64,000 bases of DNA, from the IMG/VR virus record IMGVR_UViG_3300005289_000054; one strand, given 5' to 3'. The DNA comes from a virus (lineage: Duplodnaviria > Heunggongvirae > Uroviricota > Caudoviricetes). Under the pieces are notes generated by a model. The model saw only the letters and a program-made list of their open reading frames with translations. It was not told the origin of the DNA and did not search any database. The position numbers and the translations under genes are program-made. Positions 372-54,441 of the stretch are shown here, in pieces; position 1 is the first letter of the stretch, and each line of letters opens with the position of its first letter.

Positions 372-500
372 TCGATAAGGTAAACATGTCAGGGTGTTAT
401 ATTTTCAGAAGATATTAGTCAGAGTGTTGTAAATGCTTACGGAAATATGTCAGTGAGTTATTTTAAAAATAGTGATAACTGTATGTCAGAGTGTTAAGCA
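372..500. repeat. four direct repeats, consensus TGTCAGnGTGTT, spaced 30-36 bp
   Basis: Copies at about 387, 418, 448 and 484, read directly from the sequence in a non-coding gap. Confidence 0.6.
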
Positions 501-4254: not shown

Positions 4255-4590
4255 TCAACCCATCCACATATTGTACAAGAAATGGAATGCAAGGATAAAT
4301 GCAATTACAAATCCAGAGGAAAGGGAAGTAAGCACACAGTAACCAGTGAGCTTATCAACCCATTCAGGAGGGTTATACTCTAACACAGTCGTAACAGCAA
4401 AGACACACAAACATATTAAACTACTTACAGTAAACACAGTGGTAATAATTTGAGCAAACATCTTCATAAACACCTTATTAAGTTGGTAAACACATAATAC
4501 ACCCCCTTGGGTCAAAAGTAAAGCCATTAAAGTGGAAATAATAAGAATATCTGCACACACATCATCCGAGTATTCGAGGATAGAGGACAC
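4255..4590 (-). CDS. hypothetical membrane protein
   Basis: 111-aa ORF with three or more hydrophobic segments. Confidence 0.45.
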   Translation of the reverse strand: MSSILEYSDDVCADILIISTLMALLLTQGGVLCVYQLNKVFMKMFAQIITTVFTVSSLICLCVFAVTTVLEYNPPEWVDKLTGYCVLTSLSSGFVIAFILAFHFLYNMWMG

Positions 4591-4772
4591 AGAGTATTAC
4601 ACATAGGATAGTACCAAGAGACGATGATGTCTCTTATTGAATACTCACATTAGAGAGAAGAGTATTATTCTTAGTTATAGTAAGGATTAGATTAGCATTC
4701 ATTCAATCTAGTCTAATCATATAACTAAGAGGAAGTGTTCTATTGTGCGTAGCACATAATTAGTATCCTGTC

Positions 4773-4792
4773 AACATGCAACGTTGCATGTT
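4773..4792. promoter_or_regulatory. 20-bp perfect palindrome AACATGCAACGTTGCATGTT (candidate operator)
   Basis: Read directly from the sequence. It lies in the divergent intergenic region. Confidence 0.5.
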
Positions 4793-4904
4793 ATATATTT
4801 GTGGATAAGTCAAATAGAAAATACCAATTAAAAAATATAATTAATCTAAAAATAAAATAATTGACATATCTTTTAGAGGTGTGTTTAACCCCCTATATCT
4901 ATTT

Positions 4905-5175
4905 ATAGATAATTTATTACACATTCCAATAATCCTCTAACTACTCCTAACTACTCAAAACCATTAATATCAATACATTCCAATAAAATTACATTACACA
5001 TAATTAGTATTCTACATTACACCTATAGTATCCTATTACACATAAACAATATTCGTATTGACACAAACAATACTTTATTACACATAACATATTGTTTACA
5101 CAATAATAACACTATTTATTACACATATGTTATTCTTCTTAATTACACATAGAATATTACATTTACAAAAGATAT
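4905..5175. repeat. iteron-like array of about eight TTATTACACAT-type motifs
   Basis: Full copies at about 4915, 5074 and 5115, and shorter ATTACACAT variants at about 4993, 5015, 5035, 5095 and 5141. Spacing is 26-41 bp. A second motif CATAATTAGTAT occurs twice, at about 4756 and 5000. Confidence 0.55.
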
Positions 5176-5342
5176 ACAATATAGGTGTTAAATAGTTATT
5201 AAATACTCAAAAAATATTCCTTGAGGAGTTACTACCCCGATGAGTTTCAGAACACTTTTAAATTCAATCACTTAAAATCATTTCTTTATATAGGAACATA
5301 GAAAAATATAAATTTGATTTAGGTGTAAAACATGTGTAAGAT

Positions 5343-5376
5343 AGTACAAGATGCTGAGCCGATTTGGTGTTATAAT
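5343..5376 (+). promoter_or_regulatory. candidate sigma70 promoter with extended -10 (TGtTATAAT)
   Basis: The sequence tgttataat sits at 5367-5376, 34 bp upstream of the TTG start at 5410. The RBS AAGGAG is at 5398-5403. Confidence 0.35.
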
Positions 5377-5409
5377 ATAACATTATATATTGACATGAAG
5401 GAGTAATAA

Positions 5410-6744
5410 TTGAAAGTTGAGATTTTAGATGGTGTGATGGGTAGTGGTAAAACTACTGCTATTTGTAAATGGATGGATGATCTGTCAATAAAAGATAGTA
5501 GCTCTAAATTCTTCTACATCTCACCATTGTTGAGTGAAGTTCAAGAAGATGGTGGTCGTATTCACAAACAATGTAATCATGTTAAGTTTGTATCTCCTGA
5601 GAGTAAGGGTAGAAGTAGTAAGGGTGATCACCTCTTAGAGTTATTGAAAGATGGTGTTAATATTGCTTGTACACACAGATTGTATTTGAATATGGATGTT
5701 AGACACTTCAATATTATGAAGGAGTTAGGGTATAACCTCATTATTGATGAAGAGATTGGAATGATTGAGGGTTATAATGCTTACTCGCAAGCTGATTGTG
5801 ATTTCCTCATTGAACAACAATGTATTGGTAAACAAGATAATGATGGGATGTTGATATGGTTGAAAGATAGTGAGAGTTTTCATAAGTCAGATCATAAATA
5901 CTATGAGTTTAAGAAGAATATTGAGAATGGCTTGATTTATGCATGTAAATCTTCTAACTCGATGATGGTTACACAACTTCCTGTTAAACTGCTAGAAGTG
6001 GCTAAACGTATTATCATCCTCACATACATGTTTGAAGGAAACATCTTATCTTCTTTCTTGAAGCTTAAAGAGATTGAATATGTTCCATTTACGGAAGTGA
6101 TTTTAAATGATATCAGTAAGGATAATATTAAACCTTTGATTAAGTTACATCAACCAAGATATTTTAGACAATGGAAGTTTATGGATGAGTTGCCTATGAC
6201 GTACACTTGGTATTCAGGAAAAACACAGGTTAAAGAGAAGCGCATCACCAATCAAGATGTTCTTAATATTACAAAGTACATTAAGAGTGTTAAGAGTGCT
6301 TGTGGTGCTAATTGGGAAGATGTTTTATACACATTTCCTAAATGTCGTAGTTTATTAGATATTGATAGTCGTATGGCTAAAATCAACCCTGAAGATTTAA
6401 AGAGAGTTGATGTGTTAGAAGCTAAACAGACATGGTTACCTAGTAACACTAGAGCTACGAATAATCTTAGTCATAAATGGTGTTTAGTGCATTGTTATAA
6501 TAGATACCCAACTCAATCTGTTATGCAATATTTACGTGATTATGGGGTAGAGGTTAATAATGAAGTTTTTGCACTAACAGAAATGATTCAATGGATATGG
6601 AGGAGTCGTGTTCGTAATCAAGAAGAGATTTATCTTGCAATTGCATCAAAACGTATGAGATTGTTGTTTCTTAACTGGTTACATGATTTACCGTTAAGTA
6701 ATGAAGATCATAGTTACTTTACTGATTATTTGAAGGGTAAATAA
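5410..6744 (+). CDS. P-loop NTPase (Walker A GSGKTT, Walker B LIIDEE); function unknown
   Basis: 444-aa ORF. It apparently starts at TTG 6 nt after an AAGGAG RBS. The N-terminus MKVEILDGVMGSGKTT resembles phage nucleotide kinase or helicase Walker A motifs. Confidence 0.55.
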   Translation: MKVEILDGVMGSGKTTAICKWMDDLSIKDSSSKFFYISPLLSEVQEDGGRIHKQCNHVKFVSPESKGRSSKGDHLLELLKDGVNIACTHRLYLNMDVRHFNIMKELGYNLIIDEEIGMIEGYNAYSQADCDFLIEQQCIGKQDNDGMLIWLKDSESFHKSDHKYYEFKKNIENGLIYACKSSNSMMVTQLPVKLLEVAKRIIILTYMFEGNILSSFLKLKEIEYVPFTEVILNDISKDNIKPLIKLHQPRYFRQWKFMDELPMTYTWYSGKTQVKEKRITNQDVLNITKYIKSVKSACGANWEDVLYTFPKCRSLLDIDSRMAKINPEDLKRVDVLEAKQTWLPSNTRATNNLSHKWCLVHCYNRYPTQSVMQYLRDYGVEVNNEVFALTEMIQWIWRSRVRNQEEIYLAIASKRMRLLFLNWLHDLPLSNEDHSYFTDYLKGK

Positions 6745-10434: not shown

Positions 10435-10664
10435 CATGTCATCAAATTAAGAATGGTTTTGTTTGTATGAATCATTTTGAACCAATTAAAGTTCAGATTG
10501 AACCTGATGTTTTTGTATGGTTTGAACATCACAAATCCTTTGGCCCTTTCTTTTGGGCAGATGAAGATTGTACAAATGAATTTGACAGATGGTGGGATAA
10601 TGAAGTATTATCTAAATTCGTAGATGATTATTATGGTTACAACAAAGGAGAAAATGATGTATAA
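10431..10664 (+). CDS. hypothetical protein
   Basis: 77 aa. Confidence 0.45.
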   Translation: MTCHQIKNGFVCMNHFEPIKVQIEPDVFVWFEHHKSFGPFFWADEDCTNEFDRWWDNEVLSKFVDDYYGYNKGENDV

Positions 10665-11544
10665 AAACTACAAGAAGAAGATTGAAGTCTTCTTTAGTCC
10701 AAACACTTTACAGTCAGCATTAATGAATTTTGAGAGAGAATACATTCGACATGAAGTGTTCAAATTTAATGATGGTAGTGTTAAGGTCACAATAAACGAT
10801 AATATTCCAGATCATCATTACTGTGAAATCCACATGTTTATGGAGACTATGGATGATTTAATGGTTGTTGCACAAATTAAAGATATTGTGCAACGAAAAT
10901 CTAAAAGCCCTAAAGACTTTGTACTCTACATTTCGTCTCCTGTTTATTCAAGATATGATCGTGTTATGCTTGATAATCAGACAGATGCTTTTGGTGCTAG
11001 AGTCTTTGCCAATTTTATTAACTCTCTTTATTTTGATAATGTCATTCTATTTGACTGTCATAGTAATGTTATGAGTGGCATGATTAACAACTCTTATAGT
11101 GTAGAACAGAAGCTATTAGCTGAAACATGTGTAGGAAGTTTAGAAAATTTTCTTCTTATCGCTCCAGATAAAGGAGCCTTAGTTAAGAACCCAACAGCAG
11201 ATATTGTTTTAAGTAAAGCTCGTGATGTAAATACAGGTAAGATTATTGGAGTACACCTTGATAAAGTACCAAATGCAAGTATTGATGGAAAAGATTGCTT
11301 ACTTATCGATGATATTTGTGAAGGCGGACGAACATTCACAGAAGTTGCTCATTCGATTAATGCTGAACATTCTCCGAATCTCAATCTCTATATTACTCAT
11401 GGTATTTTCTCAAATAATGCAATCGAAAAATTGCTTGTAGATTATAAAGAAATTTATGTTTACTTTATGAAAGAAAGTGTTTATGATTCACTTTGTATCG
11501 CATATAAAGAGCGATTGAATGTTTACAATTTAATTATTAATTAG
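10654..11544 (+). CDS. ribose-phosphate pyrophosphokinase (Prs) family protein; candidate ADP-ribose pyrophosphokinase (Adps) of a NARP1-type NAD+ reconstitution pathway
   Basis: A PRPP-binding-loop-like motif, LLIDDICEGGRTF, resembles the Prs DDIIDTGGT loop. Length is about 300 aa. The start was set at the ATG at 10654, just after an AGGAG RBS. It lies immediately upstream of the Nampt-like gene. Confidence 0.65.
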   Translation: MMYKNYKKKIEVFFSPNTLQSALMNFEREYIRHEVFKFNDGSVKVTINDNIPDHHYCEIHMFMETMDDLMVVAQIKDIVQRKSKSPKDFVLYISSPVYSRYDRVMLDNQTDAFGARVFANFINSLYFDNVILFDCHSNVMSGMINNSYSVEQKLLAETCVGSLENFLLIAPDKGALVKNPTADIVLSKARDVNTGKIIGVHLDKVPNASIDGKDCLLIDDICEGGRTFTEVAHSINAEHSPNLNLYITHGIFSNNAIEKLLVDYKEIYVYFMKESVYDSLCIAYKERLNVYNLIIN

Positions 11545-11553
11545 GAGAAACAC

Positions 11554-13389
11554 ATGGATTTACTTACTAAACAAAATGAAATTTTTCGATCACTTAAAGG
11601 TCATGTTCCTGTTATTAATCCCTTCTTATATGGAACAGATTCATATAAGATGTCACACATTAAGATGCAAACAGAAGGGGTTAAAGAAATTTATTCAAAC
11701 TTCACACCACGTTTCTCTAAGTATTTAAAAGATATGTTGGGTGATAAGTTCGACAATAAATATGTTGTATTTGGATTACAGTGGATGATGCTTCGTTTAC
11801 ACATGATGGCACAAGAAGGTTTCTTTAATCGTCCTAAAGATGAAGTAATTGCTGAAATGAAAGAAGTATTAACTCCTTACATTGGCAATGATAAGTATGA
11901 TCATTTTGAAGCACTCCATGATCTTGGTTATCTACCAATTGTTGTTAAGACTTTAGATGAAGGTACTATTGCTCCTGTTGGCGTTCCATTTTTAACTATC
12001 CGAAATAGTGTTTTAGGATTTGAATGGTTGCCTAACTTCTTAGAAACTATTATCTCAACTGATTTATGGAAGCAGTTAACTATCGCTACAGTAGCTCATA
12101 TCTTCCGTAAAATTACAAACGAGTTTGCTTTAGAAACTACTGGTAGTATTGAAGGTACAGAGTGGCAGAACCATGATTTCCATGTACGTGGTGCTAGTGG
12201 TTTTGAGAGCGCTGCAATTGACGGTGTTGCCTTCTTATTAAGTTCATGTGGCACTGATAACATTCCTGCTTTGTGGGCTGCTGATAAGTTTTATCAAAGT
12301 TCTAATAAACAAGGATTATTAGCTGGTTCAGTTCCTGCTGGAGAACATTCAGTAACAACTTCAGGTATTCTTGCGGAAGTAGAGCGTGCAGCTTTAGATG
12401 GCGAGGATTTAACTAAAGAACAAGCAGAATACTTCTATGCTCGAAAGATTATGATGGAGCGCTTCCCAACTGGAATTGTTTCCTATGTCGCTGACAGCTA
12501 CGATTATTGGAATTTTATTGGTAAGATTTTACCTTCATTAAAAAATGAAGTAATGTCTCGTGATGGTAAGTTTGTTGTTCGTGGTGATAGTGGTAATCCT
12601 GTAGATGTTATTTGTGGTGTTGTTGAAGATTACGAGGTAATCGAAGCAGATAATGAAGAGGAATTCTTAGAAGCAGCTTATGAGATTATCCATGATAATT
12701 TACAGGATGTAACACCTCATGGGGAATATGGAGGCGATGACCATGATATGAACTTTAGTTGGAATGGTCGTATTTACAATGTTTCTTTCTCAGGATTCCA
12801 ATGGAATCGTTACGATAAACAGTACTACTACTTGGACACTTACCGTTCAGATGTAACTCATAAGATGACTGAGATCAAACGAAATATTGAACACAAAGGA
12901 ACGATTGAAGCACTCTGGGATATCTTTGGTGGTCATGTAAATGATAAAGGTTATAAAGTTCTAGATTCACACATTGGTATGATTTATGGTGATGGTATTA
13001 CTGTAGAGCGTCAGATTGAAATCTTAACACGATTGAAGAACAAAGGTTTTGCATCAACTAATATTGTATTTGGTGTTGGTTCTTACTCTTTAAACATGGT
13101 AAGTCGTGATCATTTAGGAATGGCTATTAAAGCAACTAACCAAGTTTTGGAATTAGATAATGGTATTGTCTTAGACCAACCAATCTATAAAGACCCTAAG
13201 ACAGATACTTCTAAGAAGTCTGCTCATGGTTTGATTAGTGTTCATGAAGATGAGAATGGTGAACTCTACTTTAAAGATAAACAGAATCGTAAGGAAGAGA
13301 AAACTGGTTTATTAAATGTTCTTTATATGAATGGTCAATTTCAGAAGTTAACAAACATCTTTGAAATTCGTGAAAAGATGTGGGATTAA
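11554..13389 (+). CDS. nicotinamide phosphoribosyltransferase (Nampt/NadV) family protein; candidate Namat of NARP1
   Basis: 611-aa ORF with a strong AGGAG RBS. The N-terminus (PFLYGTDSYKMSHI...) and length are Nampt-like, and it is translationally coupled to the Prs-like gene. Confidence 0.7.
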   Translation: MDLLTKQNEIFRSLKGHVPVINPFLYGTDSYKMSHIKMQTEGVKEIYSNFTPRFSKYLKDMLGDKFDNKYVVFGLQWMMLRLHMMAQEGFFNRPKDEVIAEMKEVLTPYIGNDKYDHFEALHDLGYLPIVVKTLDEGTIAPVGVPFLTIRNSVLGFEWLPNFLETIISTDLWKQLTIATVAHIFRKITNEFALETTGSIEGTEWQNHDFHVRGASGFESAAIDGVAFLLSSCGTDNIPALWAADKFYQSSNKQGLLAGSVPAGEHSVTTSGILAEVERAALDGEDLTKEQAEYFYARKIMMERFPTGIVSYVADSYDYWNFIGKILPSLKNEVMSRDGKFVVRGDSGNPVDVICGVVEDYEVIEADNEEEFLEAAYEIIHDNLQDVTPHGEYGGDDHDMNFSWNGRIYNVSFSGFQWNRYDKQYYYLDTYRSDVTHKMTEIKRNIEHKGTIEALWDIFGGHVNDKGYKVLDSHIGMIYGDGITVERQIEILTRLKNKGFASTNIVFGVGSYSLNMVSRDHLGMAIKATNQVLELDNGIVLDQPIYKDPKTDTSKKSAHGLISVHEDENGELYFKDKQNRKEEKTGLLNVLYMNGQFQKLTNIFEIREKMWD

Positions 13390-36424: not shown

Positions 36425-36499
36425 TGGTCAGATATCTCAGATTCGAACTGAGGAAGACAATTTTAGGGATTGCTGTTTTACCGCTAAACTAATATCCGA
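36425..36499 (-). tRNA. tRNA with apparent CUA anticodon (possible amber suppressor); identity uncertain
   Basis: Manual fold. The acceptor stem is CGGATAT/ATATCTG, the D stem GTTT/AAAC, the anticodon stem GCAAT/ATTGT with loop CCCUAAA (C33 is unusual), the T arm CTCAG-TTCGAAT-CTGAG, and the CCA is encoded. It is 75 nt long. Confidence 0.5.
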
Positions 36500-53418: not shown

Positions 53419-54180
53419 TTAATAATCCTCCAAATAACCATTTTGTAATTGTGACATCTGATAGATTCTCTCTCTAGCTTCTGACACACCTGATTTATAT
53501 ACAGAACTAAGACTACCTAATAATTGACCACTTGTCAACTTGTTTTCTGTCAAATCATCTTGATGATACTCTACAGGGATATTCAAACTATTTGAATTAT
53601 TCAATGAATTTAACATAGCAATATCACATTCATCATAATCTTGTTGTGTTACTTCATCTTCCTCTTCATGAATATCTTCTTCTTTGTTCTTCAATAAGTG
53701 TTTAAGTGCATCAGGAACACCCTTCACAACATTTGAACGTTCCTTACCTTGTTTATCAAAACTTTCTTTCATGGCTTGTGAAACATTCGATTTAGGCATC
53801 TTTTTACCATGCTGTTCCTTACTTTTAGGTTTACTTGGTACGGTAGTGCCTGTATTTACTTTCGTGTCACCAGAAGCTTCTGAAGAGCTTTTAGAGCTAT
53901 CTAATAAATCAATTGCTTTCTTAGTTAAAGAATAATGTGTTGTTCTGTCGTATCCTTTCCCATAAGTGATTTCAATTAATCCATTTTCAATAAGTTTCTT
54001 TTTAGCACGTTGAATCTGAGATGCTGAAAACATCCCTTCTAAATCTTCTACAAGTTGTGTGTTTGTACGATATACAACTTCTCTTCCTGATGAATCTTTC
54101 CAATACTTTAAGTGACGTAATAGAACACTCGCAATGCTACCAACAATCTTAACTACTGATGGATTTAAAATTTTAATCAT
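53419..54180 (-). CDS. putative DNA-binding protein (winged-helix-like N-terminus, low-complexity basic linker)
   Basis: 253 aa. The N-terminal 90 aa look like a wHTH, but function is unknown. It lies immediately upstream of the tail fibre operon on the other side of a terminator. Confidence 0.4.
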   Translation of the reverse strand: MIKILNPSVVKIVGSIASVLLRHLKYWKDSSGREVVYRTNTQLVEDLEGMFSASQIQRAKKKLIENGLIEITYGKGYDRTTHYSLTKKAIDLLDSSKSSSEASGDTKVNTGTTVPSKPKSKEQHGKKMPKSNVSQAMKESFDKQGKERSNVVKGVPDALKHLLKNKEEDIHEEEDEVTQQDYDECDIAMLNSLNNSNSLNIPVEYHQDDLTENKLTSGQLLGSLSSVYKSGVSEARERIYQMSQLQNGYLEDY

Positions 54181-54212
54181 TATGTTTTCCCTACAACCAA
54201 CAACAGGTGTGA

Positions 54213-54242
54213 AGTTTAGTCTTGTGTTTTTTGTTTGTCAAT
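54213..54242 (-). promoter_or_regulatory. candidate sigma70 promoter for the wHTH gene (TTGACA-18 bp-TAAACT on the minus strand)
   Basis: Hexamers read from the reverse complement. A nearby inverted repeat, TATTTCGAT/ATCGAAATA, sits at about 54333 and 54366. Confidence 0.3.
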
Positions 54243-54392
54243 TCCCCTATAAAAGAAATATTTAAAAACTATTCTATTCCTATTAGACATTTTTCAATTG
54301 TGAAATATTGAATTTTCATAAACGTAAAATTGTTATTTCGATATTGAATTATGCTTATTGTGAAATCGAAATATGAATAAAAACAATAGACG

Positions 54393-54425
54393 TAAAAAAT
54401 CCCCACCCGAAGGCAGGGATTAGAA
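54393..54425 (-). terminator. rho-independent terminator ending the tail fibre operon
   Basis: On the minus strand, AATCCCTGCC-ttcg-GGTGGGGATT is followed by TTTTTT. Confidence 0.6.
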
Positions 54426-54441
54426 TAGAAAATATTAATTT

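Follow-up and report, generated by a model that had tools for sequence, protein, structure and literature searches.

Introduction

Arrays of short repeats that flank the terminal repeat of a linear phage genome are known from T7. In the T7 sequence, which we checked, the 160-bp terminal repeat contains three copies of CCTAAAG and is followed by eight more on one strand. All 11 copies, at nt 17-340, have the same orientation; the motif recurs, together with variants, just before the right copy of the repeat. The early promoters are found just beyond the array. The T7 arrays are reportedly the SRL and SRR of Dunn and Studier 1983. We know of no established function for them, so that an analogy with T7 gives a position and not a mechanism. 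Direct repeats in non-coding DNA have other well-described settings. In the iteron origins of the plasmids RK2, R6K and P1 and in the lambda ori, repeats about 21-22 bp apart lie beside an A+T-rich tract and a DnaA box. In T5, a 1,662-bp untranslated region at the edge of the direct terminal repeat (DTR) contains a direct repeat in nine copies, many palindromes and DnaA boxes, and the order of this repeat region is conserved among relatives (Davison, bioRxiv 10.1101/866236).

The myophages with long DTRs include Acinetobacter baumannii phages studied for their capsule-degrading tailspikes. For this group we know of essentially no description of the cis-acting signals for terminase cutting or of the duplication of the multi-kilobase repeat.

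The DNA analyzed here, called the window, is a stretch of 64,000 nucleotides (IMG/VR record IMGVR_UViG_3300005289_000054) whose source is a 90,951-bp metagenome contig (ENA ERZ27251527) with a collapsed terminal repeat. A preliminary description had noticed in it an iteron-like array between divergent gene blocks, read either as replication-origin iterons or as clustered sites for a regulator of the early/middle switch. The phased, one-strand architecture of direct repeats stands, but origin and regulator are not the best fit. Judged from sequence, the array most likely adjoins the physical end of an Acinetobacter phage genome, at a terminal-repeat boundary, and is best filed as a further example of the repeat arrays flanking such boundaries, of the kind known from T7.

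Results and Discussion

A new Acinetobacter myophage and the array locus in its relatives

By its sequence, the window is from a new Acinetobacter myophage, a distant relative of TaPaz, B9, BS46, Ab3, Ab5, MD-2021a and phiAB441, whose genomes measure ~88-97 kb. It encodes a ribonucleotide reductase, ThyX, NAD-salvage enzymes, a family A DNA polymerase, a DnaB-like helicase and tailspikes. Adjacent genes for a ribose-phosphate-pyrophosphokinase-like protein and a nicotinamide or nicotinate phosphoribosyltransferase (10624-13389) would together make up a module for NAD salvage within the rightward early block. On the minus strand at 36425-36498, ARAGORN predicted a tRNA with the anticodon CTA, labelled Pyl, which adjoins tRNA-Met and tRNA-Arg(TCT) and would be of the amber-suppressor type. 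The literature on TaPaz and B9 is silent on genome ends, promoters and origins, and a search for work on the DTR of Acinetobacter myophages gave nothing on these phages among the papers listed.

The complete TaPaz genome contains a homologous non-coding region between two divergent blocks of small unannotated genes. At the array locus, TaPaz, B9, Ab5, MD-2021a and phiAB441 have 0.9-1.2 kb of non-coding DNA with (A/T)ACACTAA arrays, predominantly on one strand, while the repeats of BS46 are of the TAGTTATTAG type. Across the complete genome of TaPaz, the ACACTAA-type motif is enriched at this locus and is not distributed genome-wide as a promoter would be. When Ab3-TPeters is included, the seven relatives resemble the window in the place of the locus (between the small-gene block and the YonV-like/helicase block), in its length, its same-strand arrays, its A+T-rich core, its hairpins and a junction element AGGTG..TTAAC. 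They differ in the motif, which is ACACTAA or TAGTTATTAG instead of TTACACATA, and in the irregular phasing of the B9-type arrays. Similarity to the window at the DNA level is limited to the promoter-proximal part. The relatives' arrays thus occupy the same locus with motifs other than TTACACATA and, on the sequences compared, the locus is conserved in architecture, not in motif. The array is not annotated in any of these relatives' records. Alignment of the five B9-type regions revealed a block of ~130 bp that is nearly invariant and very A+T-rich, with variable flanks.

In MD-2021a (L093 4477-6760) and Ab3-TPeters (L102 1945-4228), a two-gene cassette on the opposite strand, encoding a 'DNA helicase' and a 269-aa protein, replaces the YonV-like gene, so the genes adjacent to the junction can be exchanged.

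DNA pattern scans of IMG/VR and metagenome contigs for a relative with the array motif returned unrelated matches only, among them satellite-like tandem repeats, and no relative was found in IMG/VR with the YonV-like protein. One IMG/VR contig, very A+T-rich, viral and otherwise dissimilar to the window, has a 21-bp unit, TTTTATTACACATAAAATTTA, in five perfect tandem copies between divergent genes (L089 10863-10970). Its TTATTACACATAA core is also found in the window, which is probably a coincidence.

A phased repeat array on one strand

The array lies in a gene-free region between a leftward block of small genes and a rightward block (Table 1), and the long non-coding stretch between divergent blocks that had been reported is real. 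The gene caller of the source contig called no gene in it, and 4591-5409 contains no ORF of at least 40 aa. The region is bordered on the left by a small membrane-protein gene and on the right by the gene of a YonV-like P-loop protein. Comparison by eye of its translation with the TaPaz sequence places the start of the leftward gene at the ATG of 4476 (4474-4476, reverse complement) instead of the GTG at 4590, which lies farther upstream.

Table 1. Coordinates of the features at the array locus and at the predicted inner boundary of the terminal repeat (positions in the window)
Feature	Position	Strand	Basis or remark
Second array, 4 x ATGTCAGRGTGTT (AACACYCTGACAT on the minus strand)	386-500	+	unique side of the predicted inner boundary at ~510
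Gene-free region, from the leftward small-gene block to the rightward YonV-like gene (5410-6744)	4477-5409	.	ORF list, translations
Full repeat unit GTATTACACATAGGATAGTACC apart from the main array, within the predicted terminal repeat	4594-4615	+	
Hairpin-rich segment	4616-4730	.	fold and inverted repeats
Degenerate repeat unit TAGCACATAATTAGTATCC (the 'second motif' of the preliminary description)	4750-4769	+	
Perfect 20-bp palindrome AACATGCAACGTTGCATGTT, terminator-like on the plus strand	4773-4792	.	
Consensus DnaA box TTATCCACA	4800-4808	-	
A+T-rich tract, just inside the predicted genome end	4809-4860	.	
Junction element TTGACATATCTTTTAGAGGTGTGTTTAAC	4861-4889	+	homology to BS46 TTGACATATATTCTTGTAAGGTGATTAAC and to B9-type TTGTATTTATTTGT and CTAAGGTGATTAAC on either side of the cut
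Main array, 8 x (T)TATTACACATA, period ~21/42 bp	4905-5175	+	motif scans, weight matrix, autocorrelation

The TTATTACACATA repeats are genuine and restricted to a single spot in the 64-kb window. About eight copies on one strand had been counted; the 933 bp of the gene-free region contain nine copies of (T)TATTACACATA, all on the plus strand, eight of them within 4905-5175. They start at 4594, 4914, 4991, 5014, 5033, 5075, 5093, 5116 and 5140 (anchored on TTACAC, at 4597, 4917, 4994, 5017, 5036, 5078, 5096, 5119 and 5143), and degenerate copies are found near 4750, 5055 and 5154 (the last two at 5058 and 5157 with the TTACAC anchor). The three copies said to be exact are so (TTTATTACACAT at 4913, 5074 and 5115). 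The supposed second, separate motif turned out to belong to the same repeat: CACATAATTAGTAT, at 4753 and 4997 with 14 of 14 nucleotides matching, is the 3' half of the ~20-nt repeat unit TTACACATAATTAGTATYC.

The clustering is not a matter of general composition. ATTACACAT occurs eight times in the window against 1.92 ± 1.38 expected, a count reached in none of 100 shuffles, and seven of the eight occurrences are at 4596-5150, each on the plus strand. A position weight matrix built from the copies placed eight of its nine plus-strand hits (at least 12 bits) in the gene-free region, which makes up 1.5% of the window. It found one hit on the minus strand of the window, and the only minus-strand hit in the array region appeared at the lowest threshold. 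In a sliding scan of k-mers over 300 bp, the array was the strongest local cluster of the window, with one 7-mer occurring seven times against at most four elsewhere. The array is non-random, well beyond chance.

The spacing, estimated earlier at about 41 bp, was measured as 42, 42 and 41 bp between the strong copies at 4993, 5035, 5077 and 5118, and weaker copies interleaved among them bring the basic period to ~21 bp. The autocorrelation of the array has peaks at lag 42 (z 3.8-3.9) and lag 21 (z 2.4-3.3), which indicates that the sites lie on one face of the helix. From this sequence pattern the array is very probably protein-binding.

The terminal-repeat boundary in the relatives and the predicted genome end

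Exact DTRs are present in the database records of Ab5 (3,864 bp), Ab3-TPeters (3,972 bp) and Ab15, a phage of a different genus (5,018 bp), each with 0 mismatches; these are the repeats as deposited. The outer boundary is identical in Ab5 and Ab3 and falls inside the homologous non-coding region. It reads ...TTGTATTTATTT(G/T)T up to the cut and CTAAGGTGATTAAC... beyond it or, in a wider view, ...TTTTACACTAAAGTAGTTGTATTTATTT(G/T)T and CTAAGGTGATTAACACTACA..., in the middle of the ~130-bp block, the best-conserved non-coding block and nearly invariant in five phages. Copies of the ACACTAA type flank the relatives' cut on both sides. The inner boundaries of Ab5 and Ab3 coincide as well. In Ab15, about five direct repeats of ~20 bp end ~15 bp before the outer boundary, on its unique side.

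The sequence around this boundary has a counterpart in the window. The 12-mer AAGGTGATTAAC is exact in B9, Ab5, MD-2021a, phiAB441 and BS46, where it is preceded by TTGACATAT, and the composite junction element TTGACATATCTTTTAGAGGTGTGTTTAAC occurs once in the window. The homology predicts that the genome end, or outer DTR boundary, of this phage lies at ~4873/4874 within the element, with the repeat to its left and unique DNA to its right. The predicted end is ~40 bp from the array. The flanking BLAST anchors place the boundary only within ~4750-5040, an interval that still overlaps or abuts the array, and the similarity of the window to the Ab3 core is not significant beyond the short junction element. 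The motif copies nearest to the predicted cut lie ~40 bp away on one side and ~120 bp on the other, a looser arrangement than in the B9 type.

For this phage, the terminal repeat is predicted to extend from ~510 to ~4873, over ~4.4 kb, and to contain the leftward small-gene block. The inner boundary at ~510 was set by homology, 538-560 matching an Ab5 sequence 28 nt inside the inner boundary of that phage. On the unique side of this point and after ORF 93-347 is a second array, whose copies are 30-36 bp apart. Its unit differs from that of the main array; the common part is an AACAC core on the opposite strand. The two arrays thus have an ACAC core and are oriented away from the repeat. Two motif copies, at 4594 and 4750, lie inside the predicted repeat.

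The segment left of the predicted end has several elements of its own. As single-stranded DNA, 4590-4800 folds with z = -6.2 relative to shuffled sequences into three hairpins, one of which is the 20-bp palindrome reported earlier. This palindrome is indeed perfect, and its outer arms AACATG/CATGTT form a shorter palindrome in TaPaz. A 7-bp stem, AAGAGAC-GATGAT-GTCTCTT at 4616-4635, would be ~250 bp inward of the predicted end, and 4669-4730 contains a long imperfect hairpin. At the position of the 7-bp stem, the relatives have CTAAGAC/GTCTTAG (TaPaz, B9) or CTGATC/GATCAG (Ab5, MD-2021a), which indicates that the stem has been kept through changes on both of its sides. The A+T-rich tract is the positional counterpart of the core of 90-95% A+T conserved in the B9-type relatives.

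These observations bring the locus close to T7. In both phages, a short motif forms a local, non-coding array on one strand; in T7, and by prediction here, this array lies beside a DTR boundary at the genome end and some copies are inside the repeat. In our phage all nine copies are on the plus strand and the motif is confined to the junction within the 64-kb window, the last 27 kb of the genome lying outside it. The exact DTR itself is seen in Ab5, Ab3 and Ab15, the repeat being collapsed in the source contig. The differences are also clear. The T7 motif has 7 nt and is mostly spaced by 13 or 25-26 nt, whereas the window has a core of 9-12 nt in a helix-phased unit of ~21 bp. The T7 repeat has 160 bp, whereas the repeat predicted here has ~4.4 kb, contains genes and belongs to a myovirus. 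Unlike in T7, the array at the other predicted boundary is of a different sequence and in opposite orientation.

End-near arrays of unrelated phages have a CTAAAG core: (A)CCTAAAG in T7, ACACTAAAG in the B9 type and CCTTTAGG, the reverse complement of CCTAAAGG, in AM24. The window motif does not have this core.

An array that may mark the genome end

We tentatively regard the array as a set of binding sites for terminus recognition, packaging or end processing, a reading that we hold to be somewhat short of probable. The array would be one of the short-repeat arrays that border the long DTR of a linear phage genome, and the leftward small genes within the terminal repeat would presumably be early genes. 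With the left end of virion DNA at ~4873/4874, the array would be the first unique DNA past the cut site in concatemers during replication and, in virion DNA, at the right end. Its 9-11 same-strand copies, spaced by two or four helical turns, could load several molecules of one DNA-binding protein along one side of the helix, for which the most plausible candidates would be the small terminase subunit or another end-processing factor. We infer that such loading would mark the terminase cut site and the start of the terminal-repeat duplication, and would give them a direction.

In this scheme the motif would set lineage specificity, being TTACACATA here, ACACTAA in B9, TaPaz and Ab5, and other sequences in BS46 and Ab15. 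A lineage-specific motif is what is expected of a recognition sequence that co-evolves with its protein. A 117-aa protein encoded just upstream of the large terminase has 85-100% identity among the phages with ACACTAA arrays and 78% in BS46. These identities fit the end-processing idea weakly, and do not discriminate; in the present phage, the candidate small-terminase gene is located outside the window.

A wider proposal is that the arrays 386-500 (minus) and 4914-5150 (plus), together with the junction element, form a dedicated end-defining system of long-DTR myophages. We consider it rather unlikely. If it were true, the bound flanks would tell the terminase and the replication machinery where the repeat starts and stops, and a swap of the motif (TTACACATA, ACACTAA, TAGTTATTAG) would change packaging specificity between co-infecting lineages. 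The locus is a compact candidate for experiments: it combines a junction element of 29 bp with an array that is phased and has a motif specific to the lineage. Knowledge of such a system would allow genome ends to be placed in collapsed assemblies, packaging-competent vectors or transducing plasmids to be constructed, and packaging specificity to be studied. The locus is also a caution that a phased repeat array in a divergent region need not be an origin.

Possible control of the divergent gene blocks

The array is also upstream of the rightward gene block, and a transcriptional role fits this position equally well. It could be an operator array with which a phage or host regulator switches the divergent early blocks on or off, cooperative binding on one face of the helix occluding or looping the promoters; we take this as a serious alternative, possible but doubtful. 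The array sits between divergent blocks of small, probably early genes and 200-500 bp upstream of the first rightward gene, before which an extended -10-like promoter, TGtTATAAT, was read by eye at 5368-5376. The 21/42-bp phasing is typical of cooperative operators, and lineage-specific motifs would suit a co-evolving regulator. However, no helix-turn-helix or other DNA-binding domain was detected in the ten small neighbouring proteins, which we rejected as binders for that reason, and the copies all have the same orientation although the flanking genes point in opposite directions. The region shows no enrichment of sigma-70-like sites, with 8 where shuffled sequences have 10.7 ± 3.0, and the repeat core does not anchor any of them. 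Furthermore, an operator leaves unexplained the DTR boundary in the relatives' conserved core and the boundary arrays of Ab15 and T7. The earlier suggestion of sites for an early/middle regulator is possible, but it leaves the same boundary arrangements unaccounted for.

Two kinds of promoter were discarded as an identity of the repeats themselves. A cluster of sigma-70 promoters was rejected because the sites are not enriched and the core does not coincide with the -35/-10 hexamers. Promoters of a phage RNA polymerase were rejected because the motif is local and not genome-wide and no polymerase is among the large ORFs of the window. No RNA polymerase gene was found in the window, whose large ORFs encode tail fibres and tailspikes. 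There is a resemblance between the B9-type motif CACTAAAG and the promoter cores of T3 and SP6.

The initiator-like protein and replication

The array is probably not a replication origin. As an origin, it would consist of iterons for a phage initiator, with the A+T-rich tract and the DnaA box as the unwinding region, which we judge improbable. The architecture is suggestive: at least three helically phased direct repeats (21/42 bp) lie beside an A+T-rich tract, as in the iteron origins of plasmids and of lambda, and repeats, tract and a perfect DnaA box are all within 120 bp. The window encodes, besides the DnaB-like helicase and the family A DNA polymerase, a winged-helix protein with matches to the PHROG families of O-like and replication-initiation proteins. 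The promoters phiOL and phiOR annotated in T7, which mark secondary origins, adjoin the arrays. In the record of vB_AciJM_313, a 'putative replication origin' is annotated ~1 kb from the equivalent divergent region.

The DnaA box gives little weight to this reading. Two exact boxes in the window against 1.04 expected are not significant, and the homologous regions of the relatives contain no exact box, only variants with one mismatch at non-corresponding positions. Conserved host DnaA boxes are thus missing from the locus; the box is probably incidental as judged by this comparison, and a DnaA-dependent origin was rejected on the same grounds. In addition, the A+T-rich tract and the array lie on opposite sides of the predicted genome end. 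The GC skew does switch at the locus, as an origin would lead one to look for, but the switch coincides exactly with the change of gene orientation and is fully confounded as a test.

The comparison of the initiator-like proteins argues in the same direction. The window protein (53419-54180, minus-strand gene), proposed earlier as a candidate binder, is replication-initiator-like with a winged-helix N-terminal domain, and its gene is 48 kb away from the array, while iterons usually lie beside the gene of their initiator; the conserved core of the array, moreover, is 9-12 nt only. By eye, the N-terminal winged helix of the window protein (type A) is near-identical to those of TaPaz, phiAB441 and MD-2021a, three phages with ACACTAA arrays. 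The domain of B9 and Ab5 (type B) differs from type A, and their arrays are ACACTAA as well. The domain type does not co-vary with the array motif, and the winged-helix protein was rejected as the array binder.

Immediately upstream of the initiator-like gene, where iterons are usually placed, the direct repeats differ from one domain type to another. In the window, 54181-54440 contains, in the orientation of the gene, two copies each of ATTTCACAAT, AATTCAATAT and ACGTAAAA. The ATTTCACAAT and AATTCAATAT pairs are present in phiAB441 and MD-2021a as well, and TaPaz, also of type A, shares only the first of these sites. At the same place, B9 and Ab5 have TTACTRTAGTTCA and BS46 has near-classical repeats of 17-18 bp. 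As these upstream repeats differ with the N-terminal domain type, 54181-54440 is a better candidate for an origin or an autoregulatory operator.

The initiator-like proteins (window; L006, L094-L098) have a common C-terminal part and three unrelated-looking types of N-terminal winged helix, a pattern that points to domain swapping. The window protein is without an internal segment of ~45 residues that is present in most relatives.

Remaining readings

That the array has little or no function, as a decaying tandem duplication of ~21 bp, or acts as an RNA element, a G-poor leader with UUACACAUA sites for an RNA-binding protein, is quite improbable. Tandem Repeats Finder described the array as a 23-nt unit in 2.6 copies, and the spacers between the copies have a weak mutual resemblance. 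The plus strand of 4905-5175 contains 3.3% G against 19.6% C and is almost structure-free as a single strand; together with the orientation of the copies on one strand, this is as expected of an unstructured RNA or a G-poor duplication. However, the 9-nt core is exact in seven copies while the spacers have diverged, and analogous arrays with different motifs occupy the same locus in all relatives examined, which argues for selection. Rfam gave no match at threshold (the GA-cis family scored 18.7 bits against a gathering score of 34.7, E = 0.67), and the scan for sigma-70-like sites revealed no evident promoter upstream of the array.

It is very improbable that the array region controls injection or protects the end in the manner of the T5 injection stop signal, stalling or organizing DNA entry or circularization: the two have in common a long untranslated region at a DTR edge (a predicted one here) with direct and inverted repeats, hairpins or palindromes (a perfect one here) and DnaA box(es), but in T5 this region is found at the left repeat's inner edge and here at the predicted outer edge, the T5 hallmark is eight paired and conserved DnaA boxes against a single unconserved one here, and two-step injection, demonstrated for the siphovirus T5 with a mechanism that is itself hypothetical, is not known for these myophages.

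The genome has another divergent intergenic region, around which seven independent metagenome assemblies of relatives (L231-L235, L238 and L239) break; measured from the gene located just before that of the large terminase, these breaks lie ~1.6-1.8 kb upstream, and that of L228 ~1.3 kb upstream.
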